64,000 nt of DNA from the NCBI GenBank assembly GCA_964016885.1, contig OZ024740.1, positions 269,824,001 through 269,888,000 on the forward strand. The letters are read 5' to 3'. Of this stretch, positions 15,902 through 63,891 are shown piece by piece. The first letter of the stretch is position 1, and every line of letters begins with the position of its first letter. Position numbers and translations under genes: made by a program. The notes under the pieces are model-generated. The model was not told the DNA's origin. It did no database searches and saw only the letters and a program-made list of their open reading frames with translations. This DNA comes from Eledone cirrhosa. Its lineage: Eukaryota.

Positions 15902-16220
15902 AAAAGTATGACCCCGACGGCAGAGCTCAAGCCGTTTTGACGGCTATTTCTGGACTAAATTAGAATTCTTAGCTTGGTGAATAAATAGCCGAACTTGTCA
16001 AGAGGATACTTCCTTATATGGGAAGTACCCTCTTGACAAGTTCGGCTATTTATTCACCAGTCTAAAAATTTTAATTTAGTCCAGAAATAGCCGTCGAAAC
16101 GGGTTGAGCTCTGCCGTCGGGGTCATACTTTTTCATATTTCCCACTCTACTACTCTAAGTATTGAGTACTCTGGTGCGTTATGGTCCATCTGGTTCTTTA
16201 CCACAATTCCTTTGTTTTAT
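15902..16220 (+). mobile_element. Fold-back element family H1, long form (~110 bp arms plus ~90 bp unpaired tail) between (TA)n tracts
   Basis: 15902-16012 is the reverse complement of 16021-16132; tail shared with five other copies. Confidence 0.85.
16027..16123 (+). ncRNA. Degenerate type I hammerhead ribozyme (H1 family)
   Basis: ACCCT-C-TTGACAA (for CTGACGA) - stem II CGGCTATTT...AAATAGCCG - GAAA - stem III CGG..CCG - TC - GGGGT. Confidence 0.6.
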
Positions 16221-17179: not shown

Positions 17180-18130
17180 TAATTGTTTCTACTTTTGGCA
17201 CAAGGCCAGCAAATACCCAGTACATTACTGGTACTTTATTTTATCTACCCCGTAAGGATGAAAGGCAAAGTTAACAATTATATATAATATTAATTATTGC
17301 ATATAATTACACTTAAGAGTGTTATAAATTTGATTCAACTAAATTTTACTGTATTCACAATTATACATCAAGTTAAGTACAGATCATTAATCAATTTAGA
17401 TAAAACGAAACTTTTATACGATAAATGTAAACAATATCCTCGTAAGACGTAAACAAACATTTAAAGTAATTAAACGGTTTACGAGTCTGAAGACATTGCA
17501 GGTATCAAATTTATAAGATACAAGATTTAAAAATACGAAATCAAAACTACGGGTATTTAAACAATCTAGAGATTAACATACTCGATAAGAGAGCAGCTAA
17601 ACAATTTCTATGGTTAGGTAGAAACCTTATATCCAATATTAATAATAGCAATAATAATTGTTTCTACTTTAGGCACAAGGCCAGCAATTACCCAGTACAT
17701 TACTGGTACTTTATTATACTTTTAATAATAGCAATAATAATTGTTTCAACGTTAGGCACAAGGCCAGCAAATACCCAGTGTATTACTGGTACTTTATTTT
17801 ATCGACCCCGTAAGGATGAAAGGCAAAGTTAACCTCGGCGGGATTTGAACTCAGAATGGCAAGGGCCGTAACTCTATGCGCCAAAGCATGGCATCCGACA
17901 CTCTACCAACACTGCCAATCCACCGCCTAATAATAGCAATAATAATAAAAGCATTTCAAGAATTATTAATCAGAGTCAATATCCAATATTAATAATAGCA
18001 ATAATAATTGTTTCTACTTTAGGCACAAGGCCAGCAAATACCCCAGTGCATTACTGGTACTTTATTATACTTTTAATAATAGCAATAATAATAAAAGCAT
18101 TTCAAGAATTATTAAACAGAGTCAATATCA
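17180..18130 (-). mobile_element. Cluster of S1 SINE pieces (full copy ~17738-17928) with locally duplicated flanks
   Basis: S1 reverse complement; repeated AATAATAGCAATAATAAT flank blocks. Confidence 0.8.
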
Positions 18131-18369: not shown

Positions 18370-18411
18370 GAGGAGGAGGTTATAGTTCACTTGAAGCATT
18401 GTGTAATGAGG

Positions 18412-18818
18412 TATAAACGTTTGTAATAAGGCCAAGACAATGCAGGTATGGACATAGAAAAAAGAATGTAATAGTGAAAGATATTGATGTGAATTCGTCT
18501 TTCACCTTGAATTTATTTAAATGTCCTTAATTTTCGAGATAATATCTCTTCTTCGGAGGGAAGTAAAGGTCTCAAACCAGCGTAGGTCTCAAACCAGCGT
18601 CTTTAAATCTCTAGCCAAGCCATGCTGACCGGAAATGATTTAAAGACGCTGGTTTGAGACCTTTACTTCCCTCCGAAGAAGAGATATTATCTCGAAAATT
18701 AAGGACATTTAAATAAATTCAAGGTGAAAGACGAATTCACATCAATATCTTTCACTATTGCATTCTTTTTTCTATGTCCATACCTGCATTGTCTTGGCCT
18801 TATTACACATATTCAAAC

Positions 18819-23368: not shown

Positions 23369-23445
<77 letters not shown>

Positions 23446-23448
23446 TAG

Positions 23449-23635
23449 AGAGAGTTGTGGCTCGATGATTGAACTCTTGTCGTCTAACAGCTAGTTCCAG
23501 TCTAGAAATAGATGTTGTAACAACAGCTCAGTCATCAGGCTACGACTCTTTCCCATATACCCATACTCTACTAGCCCAAGTATCGAGTGCTCTGTTGAGT
23601 AAGGGTGTAACTAACTAGTTTAAAACTGGTTCTAT

Positions 23636-23638
<3 letters not shown>
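23449..23638 (+). mobile_element. Old diverged relative of fold-back family H1
   Basis: Imperfect hairpin GAGTTGTGGC.CGATGATTGAACT...AGCTCAGTCATCAGGCTACGACTC, then tail ACTCTACTAGCCCAAGTATCGAGTGCTCTG resembling the H1 tail. Confidence 0.55.
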
Positions 23639-23734
<96 letters not shown>

Positions 23735-24367: not shown

Positions 24368-24772
24368 ATATTCCGTAGTTAAGCAAATCAAGACCACTAG
24401 CTCACATAGAAGACATTAGTCAAAGAGTATCAACATTAAGTGCAGTTTAATATAGAAACGATTATTATTACCCTCTTTCTAAAGGCGGTAGATTGGCAAT
24501 ATCGGTAGAGGGTCGGACGCCATGCTTTGCAGCATAGAGTTACGGCCCTTGCCATTCTGAGTTCAAATCCCGCCGAGGTTAACTTTGCCTTTCATCCTTA
24601 CGGGGTCGATAAAGTAAAGTACCAGTAATGCACTGGGTAATTGCTGGCCTTGTGCCAAAAGTAGAAACAATTATTACCCTTTTTTTATATTAAACTGCAC
24701 TTAATGTTGATACTCTTTGTCTAATGTCTTCTACGTGAGCTAGTGGTCTTGATTTGCTTAACTACTGAATAT
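24368..24772. repeat. Inverted repeat (~87 bp arms) with an S1 SINE inserted in the spacer
   Basis: 24368-24454 is the reverse complement of 24686-24772. Confidence 0.85.
24481..24676 (+). mobile_element. Full-length S1 SINE
   Basis: Complete consensus; TSD ATTATTACCCT (24464-24474 / 24670-24680). Confidence 0.9.
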
Positions 24773-26465: not shown

Positions 26466-26698
26466 TACTAAGGGAAATATAAATAAATAAATATGATTTT
26501 CAATAAGGAAGAGTTCCGACCATCTGTGTTTACGCATCAATTTCAAATCAGCGACTGGCTAGTAACACGTGCTGTATTTACTAAAAATACACACATCATA
26601 CCAGCTTCGTCCCAGTGGCGTGAATAGGGTTATCGACAACTAGAAACAGCAGTCAAGTCCTTTTAACTGAGTTAGCTCTACAATTAAGGGGCTGTATT

Positions 26699-27394
26699 TA
26701 TATATATCCCAAATTAAGATAAATTAAATTAAATTAAGGGTGTCATGCCAGATAGACATGCGCCATATCACCCGTAAAATATGCTCCAAGATTCTAATGA
26801 ATAGATCCGAGCATTTTATATCAACTAGAAATTGATTGACATGTAGATAAACATATGAAACAATCACAGGGGATAATTTGTAAAAGTGTGTAAGCTCACA
26901 TAGCTATGTAGGTAACTAAGTAAAGTTTAACTAGAACTTCAAAAATAGATACCTTATAAATTGATTAATCTTCCATGTATATATTCCATTAAAGAAATAT
27001 ATTTCACCAATTAATCGATTGGTAAACGACAGTAGCCGGATCCTGTTGAAAATCCGGGATCTGGCTACTGTCGTTTACCAATCGATTAATTGGTGAAATA
27101 TATTTCTTTAATGGAATATATACAAGGAAGATTAATCATATTATAAGGTATCTATTTTTGAAGTTCTAGTTAAACTTTATTTAGTTACCTACCTAGCTAT
27201 GTGTGCTTACACACTTTTACAAATTACCCCCTGTTTCATGTTTATTTACATGTCAATCAATTTCTAGTTGATATAAAATGCTCGGATATATTCATTAGAA
27301 TCTTGGAGCATATTTTACGGGTGATATGGCGCATGTCTATCTGGCATGACACCCTTAATTTAATTTAATTTATCTTAATTTTGGATATATATAT
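26699..27394. mobile_element. Fold-back palindrome H3 (~345 bp arms, ~9 nt spacer) bounded by short (TA)n
   Basis: 26699-27045 is the reverse complement of 27055-27394 with few substitutions and one small indel. Confidence 0.9.
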
Positions 27395-27788
27395 ATTTAT
27401 ATCTGTATTTTTTGACAAATAAATTAACTATGGAGATATAAAACATACAGAAGCGAAAACCAACCAAACAGTGAGTGTGTTCTATTATTTCTGGCAATGT
27501 TACAACAATATAACCCTCCCCAAGTATAAATATATATATATATGTGTGTGTGTGTGTATGTGTGTGTGTGTGTATGTGTGTGTGTGTGCGTGTGTGTGTC
27601 TTTGTGGGCGTGGGTGTCTGTGTGTGTGTGTGTATGTCTGCGAGTGTGTGCGTGCCCGGTGTTGCGATTGACAGATTGTATTAGCAATTGGAAAGATCAA
27701 TGGAAACCTTGTTTCCTCGGTCTGATTTGACGAGCTCCATCCCACTCGTTAAGCGAATGATGTCTGGAATTTTTTCGATTGACTATCG

Positions 27789-27897
<109 letters not shown>

Positions 27898-28055
27898 GAA
27901 AATTTTCGCTCTATGGCTGAATACAATAAATGTAATCTGAATTTTTCGAATAATAACATTCAATTCGTTTGCAATTACGCAAACAAACCTCAAATGTATA
28001 GCCATGTCAGTAGAATGAACCCTTCATTATTGCTCTTGTGTTGGCATGCGAATAG

Positions 28056-28103
28056 AACTGCAGACACTAATGTTTCTGGGTATCACCCTTCATCAGTACA
28101 GCT
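28056..28103 (-). ncRNA. Type I hammerhead ribozyme (left arm of H4)
   Basis: Exact reverse complement of 28391-28438. Confidence 0.8.
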
Positions 28104-28390
28104 CATTGTTCACCTGCCAAACTGTCAGAGCTAGTGAAAATATGTTATTTTCAAAAATACACAGTGACTGATCGGCCTGATTTGCATGTTAGCAGACTGG
28201 CTGATCAGTTAGATCTGTATATTAGCAGATCCACTGATATGCAAATCTGGCTGATCAGTGGATCTGCTAATATGCAGATCTGACTAATCAGCCAGTCTGC
28301 TAACATGCAAATCAGGCCGATCAGTCACTGTGTATTTTTGAAAATAGCATATATTTTCACTAGCTCTGACAGTTTGGCAGGTGAACAGTG

Positions 28391-28438
28391 AGCTGTACTG
28401 ATGAAGGGTGATACCCAGAAACATTAGTGTCTGCAGTT
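28391..28438 (+). ncRNA. Type I hammerhead ribozyme, intact core (right arm of H4)
   Basis: AGCTGTA-CTGATGA-A GGGT GAT ACCC A-GAAA-CATTAGTG-TC|TGCAGTT; 7-bp stem I, GUC triplet, predicted cut after 28431. Confidence 0.8.
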
Positions 28439-28557
28439 CTATTCGCATGCCAACACAAGAGCAATAATGAAGGGTTCATTCTACTGATATGGTTATAAAA
28501 TTGAGGCTTGTTTGCGCAATTGCAAACGAATCGAATGTTATTATTGATATTCGAAAA

Positions 28558-35009: not shown

Positions 35010-35990
<981 letters not shown>

Positions 35991-37723: not shown

Positions 37724-37914
37724 ATAACGAAGGAAATGTGGTAAGGAACCAGGTGGACCATAACGCACCAAAGTACTCAATACTTAGGGTAGTAGAGTGG
37801 GTAATAGGAACAAGTAAGACCCCGACGGCTGAGTTCAAGCCGTTTCGACGGCTAATTCAGAATTAGCCGTCGAAACGGCTTGAGCTCAGCCGTCGGGGTC
37901 TTACTTGTTCCTAT
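37724..37914 (-). mobile_element. Fold-back family H1, short form
   Basis: 55-bp arms centred on 37859 plus shared tail; (TA)n on both sides. Confidence 0.85.
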
Positions 37915-38680: not shown

Positions 38681-40489
38681 GCAAGTGTGGGTGAGGTCAC
38701 TGTAAAGTAAGTTTTGAGTAGGTTGAAATATAGTTAATGTAAGTTTCAGTGAATTCGTTTTGAGCTTATCTGTATTGCTAACAACATTGGTATTGGAACA
38801 AGAATCTCTATTGGTGAATTATACTGCTCTGTTTCATCATTAAATGATTTTTTCTCCAGGCTTTTACTTAAAATACTTCCATCCATATTCTAAAGACGTC
38901 TTCAAATTACAGAAAATACTTGTTCGGCTATTTTTGCTTGATAATTTACATTTTCACGCTTCCGGAAAATTATTAAACAAGAATATTTATTATCGACTTA
39001 ACTAACATGATTTATATGCCTACGTTTATATTTATGTCTTATATTCTATACCACCCCACTCTCTCCACTTTTTCCCAATATTACTCCCCAATATATTTCC
39101 CAATATATCTCCCCAATATTTCCATCTTTTTGGCTTGTATTTTCTTTCTATCGCTATTTTCTTCACTTGTATGTTCATACATTCTATTATACTAAATTCC
39201 CTCAACTTGAAACGGAAGCACATATTCCATTAGATGCGAATTAATTATCTTTCAACCACTAACCCACCCAATAATCAACGTAGCTGTCTGAGAGCATTTT
39301 TAAATTTCTTGCTGGATTACAACGAGTGTGTGTTCTATCACCAACATTGCTTAAAAGTACTCCGAAATTTATTACGAGGGGGGAAATTTTATAACTTCTC
39401 ATCTTCTAATGCTCTCGAAAATGACATCTTTTGCAATTTCTGATTATCTATGATATACAAATCACTAAAGCAATTTTCCCAGTATTCACGTACGGATTAG
39501 ATATAGTTTCAAAAGATCTGAAATTAAGATCCTCACAGAACGGTATTCAATAGTCCGTCAAACAGGATATTTTTACGACATTCGGCAGAGAATAGGAAAT
39601 AGTAAACATAAGAAAATCGAAACATTTATGTTAAGCAATGCCAACAAATTCATTACACTAATCTTAATATGCTTGAAACTGATTAATTATTTGATGCCCT
39701 ATCTTACAGGCATTTTCATAACTCCATTTTCCGTGTTTGCTAAAACCTTGGGATCCTTGATACAACTCAGTACGATATTCTATGCATTCTTAGCATCCTT
39801 TGCTATAGGGATCAGGACAACACAAGCCCCGTGACTTTTGTCTATATTTAACACAGAGATTATAAGCCATTCAGAGCCACATAAAATAAAGATTACAAAA
39901 TTCAACAGCAACGAATGATACGAAATAAGTTTGGACGTGACATGAAAACATTAGAGTTAGTCGTTACTATATTTTATATTTCACTTTTCAGATTGCCATC
40001 TCTAAATGCTTCGAACCAGAAACCTAACTTATTTACTCTTTCTCTCAATTGTTTTCTGTAGATGCATTACGTGAGTTGATCTACCTAAGAAAGATGTTGG
40101 CATTCTTAACTGTATTGATATCTAGGGGGTCATCAGCTCGTGTCATTTGGAGATCTGGAGACAACTAATTTCAATTGTTAGTTATTTCAAACTGATCTGA
40201 ATGGTATCTTTGAGTTGTAAAATGCAGTCATTGTGGACAGTCTATTCAGTAATTTTTCGACAATATTATTGCGGTTATTCAAAGCTGATTGATATATTGT
40301 AGATAAAAAATGTCATGATACTATTCCATTATTGTTTAGACTGGTATTCATGATTCAATTTAATGGTTAATTCAGTACTGAGTCCAAAAGGTTTGTAATT
40401 TGCATTCAATAATAAACTTTGATTTGCGAAACATCATATGTTTATTAGTTATAAATGGGATAATTTCCAATAATACTAGATTTTAAATA

Positions 40490-40680
40490 TAATTGTTTCT
40501 ACTTTTGGCACAAGGCCAGCAATTACCCAGTGCATTGCTGGTACTTTATTTTATCGACCCCGTAAGGATGAAAGGCAAAGTTAGCCTCGGCGGGATTTGA
40601 ACTCAGAATGGCAAGGGCCGTAACTCTATACGTCAAAGCATGGCGTCCGACCCTCTACCGATACTGCCAATCCACCGCCC
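40490..40680 (-). mobile_element. Full-length S1 SINE
   Basis: TSD TAGATTTTAAATATAAT. Confidence 0.9.
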
Positions 40681-41927
40681 TAGATTTTAAATATAATGAT
40701 GGATGAACACTACCATAAATTTTTGGGTTTAATTTGCAAATTCAATTTAATAGGTTTCATTGTTTAGTTCAATGGGCTTTCGTTTTTCTAATATAAATCA
40801 AATGTCTCTTGTTTCTTGCATATATCGGGCTACCGGAATGCTTTGTCGGAAGAATATTCATAACAGATCTTTTCAAAACTGACATTTAGTTTGCAAATAC
40901 AAAATGTCACGACACTAGTTCATCATTGTTTAGACTGACATTCAATTCCCTATATATTTCTATGAAAGGTTTCTACTAAGATTATATTTTGCAGTACTAT
41001 AATAATACTTCAGACATCTAATTTATGAACATAAGTATGCATCAAACCTTCCTTACTAAATATACATTCTTGTTTCTCTGCATCTACAACCTATATCGCT
41101 CATCCTTTCATGAGACTCGTATGACGATGATGTCCCTATACACACCTTATTAACTGTTTCGTGTAGGTCTTATCAACACGTAAAAACAGTGGTTTCATAT
41201 ATGCAGGAAATGTGTATAAAAATGATGTGTATGTCCAGACAGCCTGCAAAATAGCTTAAATTGCTAAAGGTAACCACGAGGCAGAATGTGTTATTATATC
41301 CGAAAGCGTTATTATATTGCTTTGCATTTCATATATTATCGTCATTGAAGCGATTGTGTTATCTCTTCAATACTGTTTAATTTTGAAAACATCATCTACT
41401 TTCTGAGAAGGATCATCTCTGATGCTACTTTCGATGGCGCTTCATGCTAGACCACAGAAAAAAATTATACGTTTGAATGCTAAATATATAATTGTTATGG
41501 TGACATCAACTGGTAAAATCTCAGATTGCAGTGAAGTGAGATGCGTTCATTTTTCAGTTTTTATCAAATATAAAAAAGAACCTACAAGTAAAAAAGATAC
41601 GAAAATATGAAACAGAAAACGAAAGCAAAGAGCAAATACAAAAACAAAAGCTGAAGTGAACATAAAGAGGAAAAAGAGAATGAGCATTTTGAAAATTGAA
41701 TTTGAGTGTGGCTATGTGGAAATAACATAGCTGACTAGTTTCTGTTTGGATATGGGTGAAAGGTTTAGAGGTTCAAAACAAAAACAGATTCTACAGCATT
41801 TAAAAAGCTAACCCAGAGAAACAAAGCTGGTAGATAAGATTGTGTGATGTACTAAGGATGAAAGAAAATTAAGCAACATTAATGCTATAAAGAGTATTCA
41901 AATTTATGTTGTGGCATCTGTATATAA

Positions 41928-42116
41928 TAATTGTTTCTACTTTTTGGCACAAGGCCAGAAATTACACAGTGCATTACTGGTACTTTATTTTATCGACCCC
42001 GTAAGGTTGAAAGGCAAAGTTAACCTCGGTGGGATTTGAACTCAGAAAGGCAAGGGCCGTAACTCTATAGGTCAAAGCATGGTGACCGACCCTCTACCGA
42101 TACTGCCAATCCACCG
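41928..42116 (-). mobile_element. Full-length S1 SINE
   Basis: TSD CATCTGTATATAATAAT. Confidence 0.9.
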
Positions 42117-42683
42117 CATCTGTATATAATAATATATATAAAAGTGTATTAGATATATCGAGCAATTTCAAATAGAGCATTAATGAAAGTATTCTATATA
42201 CTACTAAAACTATGTGATTGTGTGTTTGTCTGTAATTTAATACGGCCACAGCGGCACATAATGGGAAAATACTTTGAAAGGAAGTTGCCCTTCAAATGAA
42301 ATAAAACAAGTTCCCGTGAATCGGGGCACGGGTTCCCGATATACGGGTTTTTCCCGGGTACCTTCATGAATAGAGAGAAAGAGATGGTGGTTGGGAGAGG
42401 GTAGATTGAAAGAGAGACAAGAGGGAGAATTAAACAGGGAAGGAACATGGAAGAGAAGGAGAGAGGGGGGGGGGTGTAGAAAGAGAGAGAGACCTTATGG
42501 TTTTGAATGGAATTATAACAGGTGATTTCAAAGAATCGAATACAGCTTTATTGTATATAGGATGAATTTGATGACCAACTATTAAGTCATATCTATGATA
42601 TAACTTGTGTTTAGGACAGGATCTGTGTAGCGAATATTTCCCGCTAAATAGGAAGGGTTTCCTTAGTGTGTGTGTATACGTGA

Positions 42684-44781: not shown

Positions 44782-44960
44782 TTTAATATTTCCTAGCAAT
44801 CACACAACATGCAGGTGGAGTTGAATCTTTATTAACATTGACCATTGATCCTTAGAATAAAGGTTGAGGTGAAAATAGTTTGGATATTAGAACTTGCTGC
44901 ATTTTAGAGGAAATAACTATATAACGTTTTAGCCAATGTTGTGACCTATATTGATAAATA

Positions 44961-45566
44961 TAATTGTTTCTACTTTTGGCACAAGGCCAGCAATTACCCA
45001 GTGCATTACTGGTACTTTATTTTATCGACCCCGTAAGGATGAAAGGCAAAGTTAACCTCGGCGGGATTTGAACTCAGAATGGCAAAGACCGTAACTCTAT
45101 GCGTCAAAGCATGGCGTCCGACCCTCTACCGATACTGCCAATCCATCGCCCATATTGATAAATATAATACATGGACATCATAAGAAATTTAAGATTAACT
45201 GTATCTAATATATAATTGAAAACCTTCATGTAATAATTGCTTCTACTTTTGGCACAAGGCCAGCAAATAAGCAGTACATTACTGGTACTTTATTTTATCG
45301 ACCCCGTAAGGATGAAAGGCAAAGTTAACTTCGACGGGATTTGAACTCAGACCGTAAAGGGACGTAACTATATGAAATAATTGTTTCTACTTTAGGCACA
45401 ATGCCAGCAATTAACCAGTGCATTACTGGTACTTTATTTTATCTACCCCGTAAGGATGAAAGCCAAAGTCAACCTCGACGGGATTTGAACTCAGATCGTA
45501 AAGGGACGTAACTATGCTGGAAAGCATGGCATCCGACCCTCTACCGATACTGCCAATCCACCGCCA
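44961..45566 (-). mobile_element. Three S1 SINE copies (44961-45150 full, 45234-45372 partial, 45378-45566 full)
   Basis: Consensus matches; first has TSD ATATTGATAAATATAAT. Confidence 0.9.
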
Positions 45567-46404: not shown

Positions 46405-46693
<289 letters not shown>

Positions 46694-56420: not shown

Positions 56421-56430
56421 ATTTGTGTGT

Positions 56431-56511
56431 ATAGAGGGTGCCCCCAAAAATTGTATATACATTTCAATTGCATTCTAATATAAGTGTGTCTGTATTTTTT
56501 GGGACGCCTGT
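56431..56511. mobile_element. ~80 bp Tc1/mariner-type MITE (second copy 56808-56885)
   Basis: TIR-like TA(C/G)AGGGTGCCCC..AAAA / TTTTTGGGACGCCTGTA with TA ends. Confidence 0.6.
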
Positions 56512-56519
56512 ATATATAA

Positions 56520-56724
56520 ATAACAAAGGAATTGTGGTAAGGAACCAGATGGACCATAACGCACCAGAGTATTCAATACTTAGGGTAGTAGAATGGGAAA
56601 TAGGAAAAAGTGTGACCCCGACGGCAGAGCTCAAGCCGTTTCGACGGCTATTTCTGGACTCAGAGTGCAGAAATAGCCGTCGAAACGGCTTGAGCTCTGC
56701 CGTCGGGGTCATATCTTTTCCTAT
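56520..56724 (-). mobile_element. Fold-back family H1, short form
   Basis: Arms 56600-56724 around spacer GACTCAGAGTG. Confidence 0.85.
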
Positions 56725-56942
56725 ATATATGTATGTGTGTGTGTGTGTGCGTGTGTGTATGTGTGTGTGTGTGTGTGTGTGCGTGTGTGTGTGTGTATGT
56801 GTGTGTATACAGGGTGCCCCCCAAAATGTATATACATTTCAATTGCATTCTAATAAAAGTGTGTCTGTATTTTTTAGGACGCCTCTTTGGATTTTAGTCT
56901 TCAAATTTATTATTATTACTATATATATATATATATATATAT

Positions 56943-57141
56943 ATAACAAAGGAATTATGGTAAGGAACCAGATGGACCATAACGCACCAGAGTACTCAAT
57001 ACTTAGGGTAGAGTGGGAAATAGGAAAAAGTATGACCACGACGGCAGAGCTCAAGCCGTTTCGATGGCTATTTCTGGACTCAGAGTGCAGAAATAGCCGT
57101 CGAAACGGCTTGAGCTCTGCCGTCGGGGTCATACCTTTTCC

Positions 57142-57144
<3 letters not shown>
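56943..57144 (-). mobile_element. Fold-back family H1, short form (tandem duplicate)
   Basis: Same spacer and flanks as 56520-56724. Confidence 0.85.
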
Positions 57145-57189
<45 letters not shown>

Positions 57190-57789
57190 CGTGTGTGTGT
57201 CTGTCTGTCTGTCTGTCTGTGTGTGTGCCTGTGTGTGTCTGTGTGTGTATGTGTGTGTGTATGTGTGTTATCGATTAAAACATATGTAAAATGTATAACA
57301 ACAAAGGTAAAAGCATTTATAATAAATGCTGCTGAGATATAAATATTAATAATGTTTTTATCTGAATACCACGATTACAACAAAAAGTTTGTATGTGTTT
57401 ACTTTGTTTCTACAGATATTTAGTTTTGAAATATGTCTGAAGAAATTAGCCGTTTAATTTAAGGAAACAACTATTGAAAACTATTAAAATGTTTTTCATG
57501 ATTTTGATTCAGCTTGAGAGAGTTAGCATCCGATACGAATTTGATATGTTAATATTATTTCAGGAATCCTTGTACAAATAAATATATACGCATTATACAT
57601 CGTTCTTCATACAGATAGAATAATTATGGTTTTATGTGAAATATTAGATATACATATTTTCTAAAGGGAACAAAATCTAATAAGACAAATGTGTTTAAAA
57701 GTACATTTGTAACTATTAGCCTTTCCTTTTTCAGGATAAATATTGCCAAATAAGTCGTACATATTCAATTTTGAAACCGTCGTGAATCC

Positions 57790-63665: not shown

Positions 63666-63668
<3 letters not shown>

Positions 63669-63854
63669 ACGAAGGAAATGTGGTAAGGAACCAGGTGGAC
63701 CATAACGCACCAAAGTACTCAATACTTGAGGTAGTAGAGTGGGTAATAGGAACCAGTAAGACCCCGACAGCTGAGATCAAGCCGTTTCAACGGCTAATTG
63801 AGTCCAGAATTAGCCGTCGAAACGGCTTGAGCTCAGCTGTCGGGGTCTTACTGG

Positions 63855-63858
<4 letters not shown>
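63666..63858 (-). mobile_element. Fold-back family H1, short form
   Basis: Arms 63746-63858 plus shared tail; (TA)n flanks. Confidence 0.85.

Positions 63859-63891
<33 letters not shown>

Follow-up and report, generated by a model that had tools for sequence, protein, structure and literature searches.

We judge it probable, at about two chances in three, that each short palindrome of the H1 repeat family consists of two cDNAs that were primed from both ends where a TA repeat had broken, ran off the capped 5′ end of the element RNA at a single site, S, and were joined head to head. The observations that carry this reading are the identity of the family, two fixed outer ends that lie 80 nt apart, a wall at S, inside extended stem II, common to both arms, an untemplated G at that wall, the fact that either arm may be the longer, and the presence of one subfamily per copy. 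The window analyzed here is a stretch of 64,000 nt from Eledone cirrhosa (contig OZ024740.1, forward-strand positions 269,824,001 to 269,888,000), for which a first-pass annotation had proposed that cDNA folds back on stem II of a hammerhead ribozyme and primes its own second strand. The tens of thousands of natural junctions in the H1 family favor two-ended priming. S amounts to a base-exact prediction of the transcription start, and a start site that splits the ribozyme suggests that newly started RNA would be unable to cut itself.

Identity and abundance of the H1 family

Judged from its sequence, H1 comprises the terminal repeat of a Hydra-clade Penelope-like retroelement (PLE) together with a tail of about 80 nt. 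Exact-match searches of the 3.0-Gb genome returned 56,449 matches to a 20-mer from stem III (far above chance, the reversed control giving 0), at least 43,601 to a 22-mer from the tail and 4,415 to a 20-mer from the core. Since 200 kb of random 10-kb stretches contained only about 5 tails, sampling was anchored on the tail. Upstream of long copies lie a 3′ UTR and then an ORF for reverse transcriptase (RT) and GIY-YIG. In 445 matches, which represent tandem copies, the tail continues into the start of this ORF, and head-to-tail arrays have a period of 3,531-3,543 bp.

One locus, L174, holds an open 718-aa ORF in which YRDD and VIY..YIG motifs were recognized by eye; RT and, at the C terminus, a GIY-YIG domain thus share a single frame, as in EN+ PLEs. 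This ORF has 2,217 relatives at E ≤ 1e-20, and the 120 matches listed are mostly about 700 aa long and nearly all unnamed. Pfam gave no family for pieces of the ORF or for the whole 718 aa, and a PDB sequence search with it gave no significant match. Compared with section 11 of PMC8557442, the ORF carries the Hydra-clade marks DKT, CNC-x5-C (CxCX5C), CNLC (CxxC) and CKH (CxH), with RWR replacing RWK, and its GIY-YIG core appears by eye to be without the cysteine pair (no CCHH). An assignment to the Neptune clade, guessed from the linker, was given up for the Hydra definition in the same paper.

The build of the copies is likewise that of PLEs, with pLTR-type tandems, a one-sided tail and an inverted, 5′-truncated arm, which adjoins 183 of 270 sampled copies. 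Of these 183, 167 have a TA repeat on their left and 176 have one on their right, as expected of the (TA)n targets of the Hydra clade. Unequal ends, and arms that continue into an RT ORF, led us to drop a reading as a MITE or DNA transposon.

At L427-L430 (G000:C1:91.476-91.488 Mb) and at G000:C1:437.200-437.211 Mb, four or more whole elements form young head-to-tail arrays, with periods of 3,542 and 3,531 bp, respectively, and with reading frames open over the part examined. Such arrays fit a circular or multimeric RNA template. A 396-aa frame for the RT of an unrelated non-LTR retrotransposon adjoins the element at L174 (989-2176, minus strand).

H1 copies in the window

Every copy in the window has two unequal arms, of which the sense arm bears the tail of about 80 nt and the inverted arm has none, and is flanked by TA repeats. 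The first-pass annotation had treated the copies as palindromes. The mirrored arms bear this out, but the palindromes are impure, one arm having the additional tail. We count offsets from S, the A at 16078 (plus strand), which places stem II at -35..+15 and the predicted cut after +40; the outer ends then fall near +60 for the tail-less arm and near +139 for the tail.

All six copies, the long one at 15902-16217 and five short ones, are found in the window sequence as they had been described, with matching spacers. In the long copy, a tail-less inverted arm on the minus strand (15902-16025) extends 69 nt upstream of S, and a sense arm on the plus strand (16021-16217) comprises terminal repeat and tail, with a TA repeat at its end. 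The sense arm contains a type I hammerhead with a U3-A8 core at 16029-16122 (plus strand): the core TTGACAA lies at 16033-16039, the two strands of a long stem II (16043-16093) at 16043-16051 and 16085-16093, GAAA at 16096, and the GTC cleavage triplet at 16116-16118, with the predicted cut after 16118. Both arms have a damaging change in the hammerhead, GAAA to AAAA in the tail-less arm and one broken stem III pair in the other. S itself, where arms stop genome-wide, is a putative capped transcription start within an initiator-like T[TC]AGT motif, and the tail (16139-16217, plus strand), from which tandem copies continue into the ORF, would lie between two reverse-transcription start sites. 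The annotation had placed the turn of this copy in stem II. The actual turn is at 16009-16025, upstream of stem I and of the whole ribozyme, on a small inverted repeat with 5 nt of microhomology and the loop on the tail-less arm; the arms turn 57-69 nt upstream of S (offsets -57/-69). Arm ends also cluster, in smaller number, at about -57 to -80, close to a hairpin upstream of stem I; this second cluster includes the same window positions and L004, L028, L149, L200 and L271, a partly selected set of loci.

The short copies turn at offsets 0..+7. As had been claimed, they retain the 3′ half of the hammerhead only, in mirrored form, and the short product is indeed without half the ribozyme. The arms stop 4-5 and 6 nt short of S, on its downstream side, in the copy at 37725-37914 (minus strand) and 6-7 and 4 nt short of it, again downstream, in that at 46405-46594 (plus strand). 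At 63667-63861 (minus strand) the tail-less arm reaches S and an extra base follows, while the tail arm begins 7 nt downstream. Both arms reach S at 56521-56724 (minus strand), where the spacer is C-W-G, with an untemplated G for each arm. The fifth copy, at 56944-57144 (minus strand), is a tandem duplicate of the last and no independent insertion. All five short copies thus exist, but they amount to four events, because those at 56520 and 56943 form one tandem duplication of about 420 nt; the pair is 91% identical over 296 nt and has its spacer and a private change in common. The duplicated segment, at 56430-57270, includes the short copy and an adjoining short repeat. An older, diverged copy with the same two-arm build, at about 23445-23640 (plus strand), had been missed.

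Other repeats accompany H1 in the window. A dispersed family of about 200 nt occurs on both strands (17732-17945, 40484-40697, 41923-42136, 44955-45168, 24484-24674 and others); it is SINE-like and may resemble a cephalopod SINE. Further long, near-perfect inverted repeats with arms of 155-215 nt (26696-27396, 27949-28545, 18411-18818, 35599-35932) are possibly other Penelope-type or MITE insertions.

Arms stop at a common wall

Among 409 tail hits, 314 had been chosen independently of their junctions (by tail patterns, in fixed-step 10-kb stretches or in the window). The whole tail and enough flank were available for 270, which divide into 183 where the 520 nt examined contain an inverted arm and 87 where they do not. 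We analyzed 165 inverted copies, nearly all from contig C1, leaving out of the 183 the tandem duplicate, 8 old copies that matched none of the references and 9 whose tail arm starts beyond +60.

Most arms end at 0..+7 from S (91 of 165 tail-less arms and 89 of 165 tail arms), in agreement with the proposal that junction centers cluster in the stem II region. A further 22 tail-less and 23 tail arms end at -8..-1, 5 and 5 more than 8 nt upstream of S, and 47 and 48 later than +7. Exactly at S we count 20 tail-less and 26 tail arms, and at -1 only 2 and 5. Since about 14% of arms go 1-8 nt beyond S, the wall is wider than one base. The tail-less arm is the longer in 79 copies and the tail arm in 67, with 19 equal (79/146, p=0.36). 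Extra bases are present at 80 of the 165 junctions, some of them parsing leftovers. The other 85 are clean, and 22 of these have at least 3 nt of microhomology, some on real hairpins (stem III, and a small hairpin at -4..+9 in 3 copies). Dozens of different junctions occur within each subfamily, and the suggestion that each junction is made anew holds.

The wall is a property of the template. It is present without a palindrome, 18 of the 87 non-inverted copies beginning at -4..+6. At 30 loci where the tail runs into the ORF, 7 copies start near S, 16 have upstream sequence (four being units of one array) and 7 start elsewhere. Joints in direct orientation, in which a piece ending in the 5′ part of the ORF is followed by a restart at -3..+3, were found at five of these loci (L412, L413/L414, L417, L421, L423). 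At L413:1301-2027, a single insertion combines an inverted arm with three tandem short units, each from 3 nt upstream of S, two of which share their end position in the ORF. The motif T[TC]AGT at S is kept in 8 of 10 reference copies, the other two having a private change at 0 or +1; we take it to resemble an initiator, for which we assume the five-letter consensus from Drosophila. Because contig depth in three public runs (one sample, kind unrecorded) steps at S, from a summed 0.22-0.29 to 2.2-2.6 million, or about 8- to 10-fold, the wall is perhaps not an assembly artefact. In the same runs, summed depth drops about 150-fold beyond the end of the tail.

An extra G at the wall

The base that follows arms ending at S is G (sense) in 26 of 46 cases, compared with 32 of 117 at control offsets (p=0.0009). 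Under a strict parse the ratio of G to A at S is 27:4, against 16:24 at the controls (p=7e-5), and in untemplated spacers alone it is 15:2 against 8:9 (p=0.026); the control totals were summed by hand from tables. Genome-wide, 314 loci have two complete arms separated by 3 nt, and at 179 of them the spacer is C-N-G, where chance would give 1 in 16. C-N-G and C-W-G junctions are found in several subfamilies and in both orientations, and the window copy at 56521 is of the C-N-G type. In 49 of 50 listed cases A or T stands in the middle, which could reflect a templated insert from a nearby CAG and not two caps with an added base.

Spacers of 2 nt do not show the C-G excess that two such bases would predict: among the first 50 of 117 loci, CG occurs in 4 (7 when CA/TG decay is included), and G is present on 26 of 100 arms. 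Counted raw across the genome, S is preceded by G 8,079 times, against a partly filtered total of 28,605, which is not decisive alone. In the first 100 matches listed, a hand count of the base before S gave 20 G, 15 C, 6 A and 59 T.

The hammerhead ribozyme

The annotation was right that a retroelement carries the hammerhead, which is of type I and lies within the Penelope-like terminal repeat. Its core was misjudged: CTGANGA (CUGANGA) occurs in none of 86 aligned core-bearing arms, which read TTGANAA, CTGAGAA or TTGAAGA or are decayed. The absence of CTGANGA had been named as grounds for refutation and, taken literally, it is what we find, but the ribozyme is left standing because U3-A8 is a published Penelope core variant, described in Cercyon PLEs of Schistosoma (PMC4209133). 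In the 86 arms, a set partly selected with a pattern that forces A8, the core is YTGANAA (YUGANAA), with any of the four bases at position 7 and G8 in one subfamily. The canonical C3-G8 is absent from 14 arms drawn across subfamilies, of which 11 have U3-A8, 1 has U3-G8 and 2 have C3-A8; 93% of their helix cells are paired, and stem I is paired throughout (100%). Three helices surround the core, with G10.1-C11.1, A15.1-U16.1 and a cut after NUH, as in type I hammerheads.

Among four arms that were folded, one gives z=-2.5 with all three helices. Covariation analysis of the 14 arms found no compensatory changes and no covariation signal, because the copies are too alike, and an Rfam scan of the window returned hairpin and microsatellite noise but no hammerhead. 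An indirect hint of self-cleavage is that 15 of 269 tail arms begin no more than 2 nt from the predicted cut, where 6.3 were expected (p=0.002). The subfamily of L115, L126 and L136 has a C3-A8 mismatch at the core pair and yet has spread, which makes it a natural test of the need for cleavage.

Origin of the palindromes

In the reading that we favor, both ends of a break in the TA repeat would prime cDNA on the element RNA, with reverse transcription starting about 60 nt downstream of S at one site and about 140 nt downstream at another. S would be a polymerase II start, and the capped RNA would begin inside the ribozyme, in the inner extension of stem II. Both cDNAs would run off the capped 5′ end, the copied cap being the likely source of the untemplated G, and their 3′ ends would be end-joined through 0-7 nt of microhomology or short untemplated inserts. 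RNA begun at S would hold only the 3′ half of the hammerhead and for that reason should not self-cleave, which would explain ribozyme-dead stubs without any fold-back. The whole ribozyme would be present only in RNA reading through from upstream, the presumed template of the roughly 12% of copies with long arms.

The first-pass annotation had ascribed the palindromes to snap-back on stem II. In general form, one cDNA, or an antisense RNA (PMC3846280), would fold on a hairpin and prime the mirror arm, the centers being trimmed later. This is the published reading of Penelope palindromes (PMC3846280), and several observations agree with it. A 13-nt subfamily tag is identical between the arms in 43 of 102 copies, compared with 6.5 in shuffles, pointing to one template class for both arms; microhomology of at least 3 nt, in part on real hairpins, is present at 22 of 85 clean junctions; and arm lengths are correlated (rho 0.37 in 165 copies), which counts against two-ended priming because fold-back also predicts it. 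For stem II, however, fold-back is largely refuted: its loop of about 33 nt must stay on the first-made arm, and this form was seen in 0 of 165 copies in either orientation, as was a product of the inner hairpin (0/165). Of the 165 junctions, 6 are clean and could come from a tail-primed cDNA folded back at some hairpin; 11 are clean mirror cases, which weigh against fold-back because a tail-primed cDNA cannot make them. In 79 of 146 copies the tail-less arm exceeds the tail arm in length, each arm can have its own extra G, solo and direct-repeat copies have the same wall, and a strand copied from the tail-less arm could not obtain the tail. We therefore regard self-priming as quite unlikely for the bulk of copies.

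Two-ended priming and joining might also operate with S as an RT stall or an RNA cut in stem II, the G coming from RT or from templated inserts. S does lie within the inner extension of stem II, C-W-G may have been copied from the adjacent CAG, and the 2-nt spacers have no CG excess. A stall would nevertheless be expected at helix entry (+15 or +40) and not past the opened main strand of stem II, the enrichment of G is confined to S, and the motif there is conserved in 8 of 10 reference copies, all of which makes a stop of this kind unlikely. We give very little credence to amplification of a few non-autonomous master palindromes, or to long inverted insertions whose centers were deleted after insertion. 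Long palindromes are unstable, and some junctions recur, such as the pairing of arms at 0 and +6, seen in about 9 copies. Against this stand the dozens of distinct junctions inside each subfamily and the identical C-W-G junction across subfamilies and orientations; nor would deletion be expected to yield a wall with an untemplated G, or an equal wall in solo copies.

A retrovirus-like strong-stop cycle is a more tentative idea, and one we think possible but doubtful. The capped RNA would start in the ribozyme, RT would start near the RNA 5′ end, run off at the cap and jump, and pseudo-LTRs and tandems would be rebuilt. With the start inside the ribozyme, only the downstream hammerhead copy could therefore cut, the 41 nt from S to the cut site would serve as terminal redundancy, and failed jumps would account for the tens of thousands of stubs. 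Evidence of such jumps is seen in the direct-repeat joints with a new start at S (L412, L413, L417, L421, L423). By hand tally, long tail arms have a long partner in 15 of 18 cases and short tail arms in 2 of 160. Because long arms are paired in this way, the data do not support a separate strand transfer into the 3′ repeat for each arm; the correlation speaks against jumps into that repeat being independent for the two arms.

Comparison with known systems

Much of the setting is already in print, including the architecture, the clade and the core variant (PMC8557442, PMC3846280, PMC4209133), and the family itself may already be catalogued. The formation of PLE inverted repeats and the rebuilding of pseudo-LTRs are named as open questions (PMC8557442, PMC2377424). 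Our search of the openly accessible literature for cap-derived G or two-ended joining in PLEs listed no prior report. Two-ended joining at a capped start would be a new and testable answer to how PLE inverted repeats form.

The element resembles the EN+ PLEs of the Hydra clade (Craig et al. 2021, PMC8557442) in its single ORF with RT followed by GIY-YIG, DKT, a CxCX5C linker and CxxC and CxH near the end, and also in its terminal-repeat hammerhead, (TA)n insertion, inverted 5′-truncated arm and one-sided tail. Unlike the elements reported there, it has a unit of about 3.5 kb rather than <3 kb, RWR in place of RWK, a non-canonical U3-A8 core, a 33-nt stem II insert and tens of thousands of stubs; its tail is about 80 nt, whereas 30-40 nt are reported for PLEs in that paper.

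Penelope palindromes (Arkhipova et al. 2013, PMC3846280) have the same head-to-head inverted pLTR, a palindrome at the junction, an optional tail and an initiator-like pLTR motif, and the transcription start and initiator of Penelope are located in its terminal repeat (PMC2377424). In contrast to the self-priming reading given there, the junction statistics of H1 fit two independently primed cDNAs. Like Schistosoma Cercyon (Cervera and De la Pena 2014, PMC4209133), H1 has U3-A8 for C3-G8, G10.1-C11.1 and opposite-strand motif pairs, which in Cercyon are 100-700 bp apart; Cercyon motifs are minimal, with little helix III, whereas in H1 stem III has 5 bp and stem II is extended.

The PAc Poseidon element, which belongs to another clade, cuts and extends both target strands in vitro, and its tail lies between two RT starts near the pLTR-ORF junction (Frangieh et al. 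2024, PMC11167929). H1 shares its AT-rich targets and the two outer ends bounding the tail; the available sections of that paper do not address the joining of inverted arms or a cap-derived base. Full-length L1-made insertions have an extra G derived from the cap, and L1 twin priming resembles our favored reading in that cDNA is made from both ends of the break, inverted products are end-joined and an extra G marks the RNA 5′ end (PMC11702581). The difference is that L1 twin priming inverts non-overlapping parts of the RNA, whereas in H1 both cDNAs would copy one stretch to one end.
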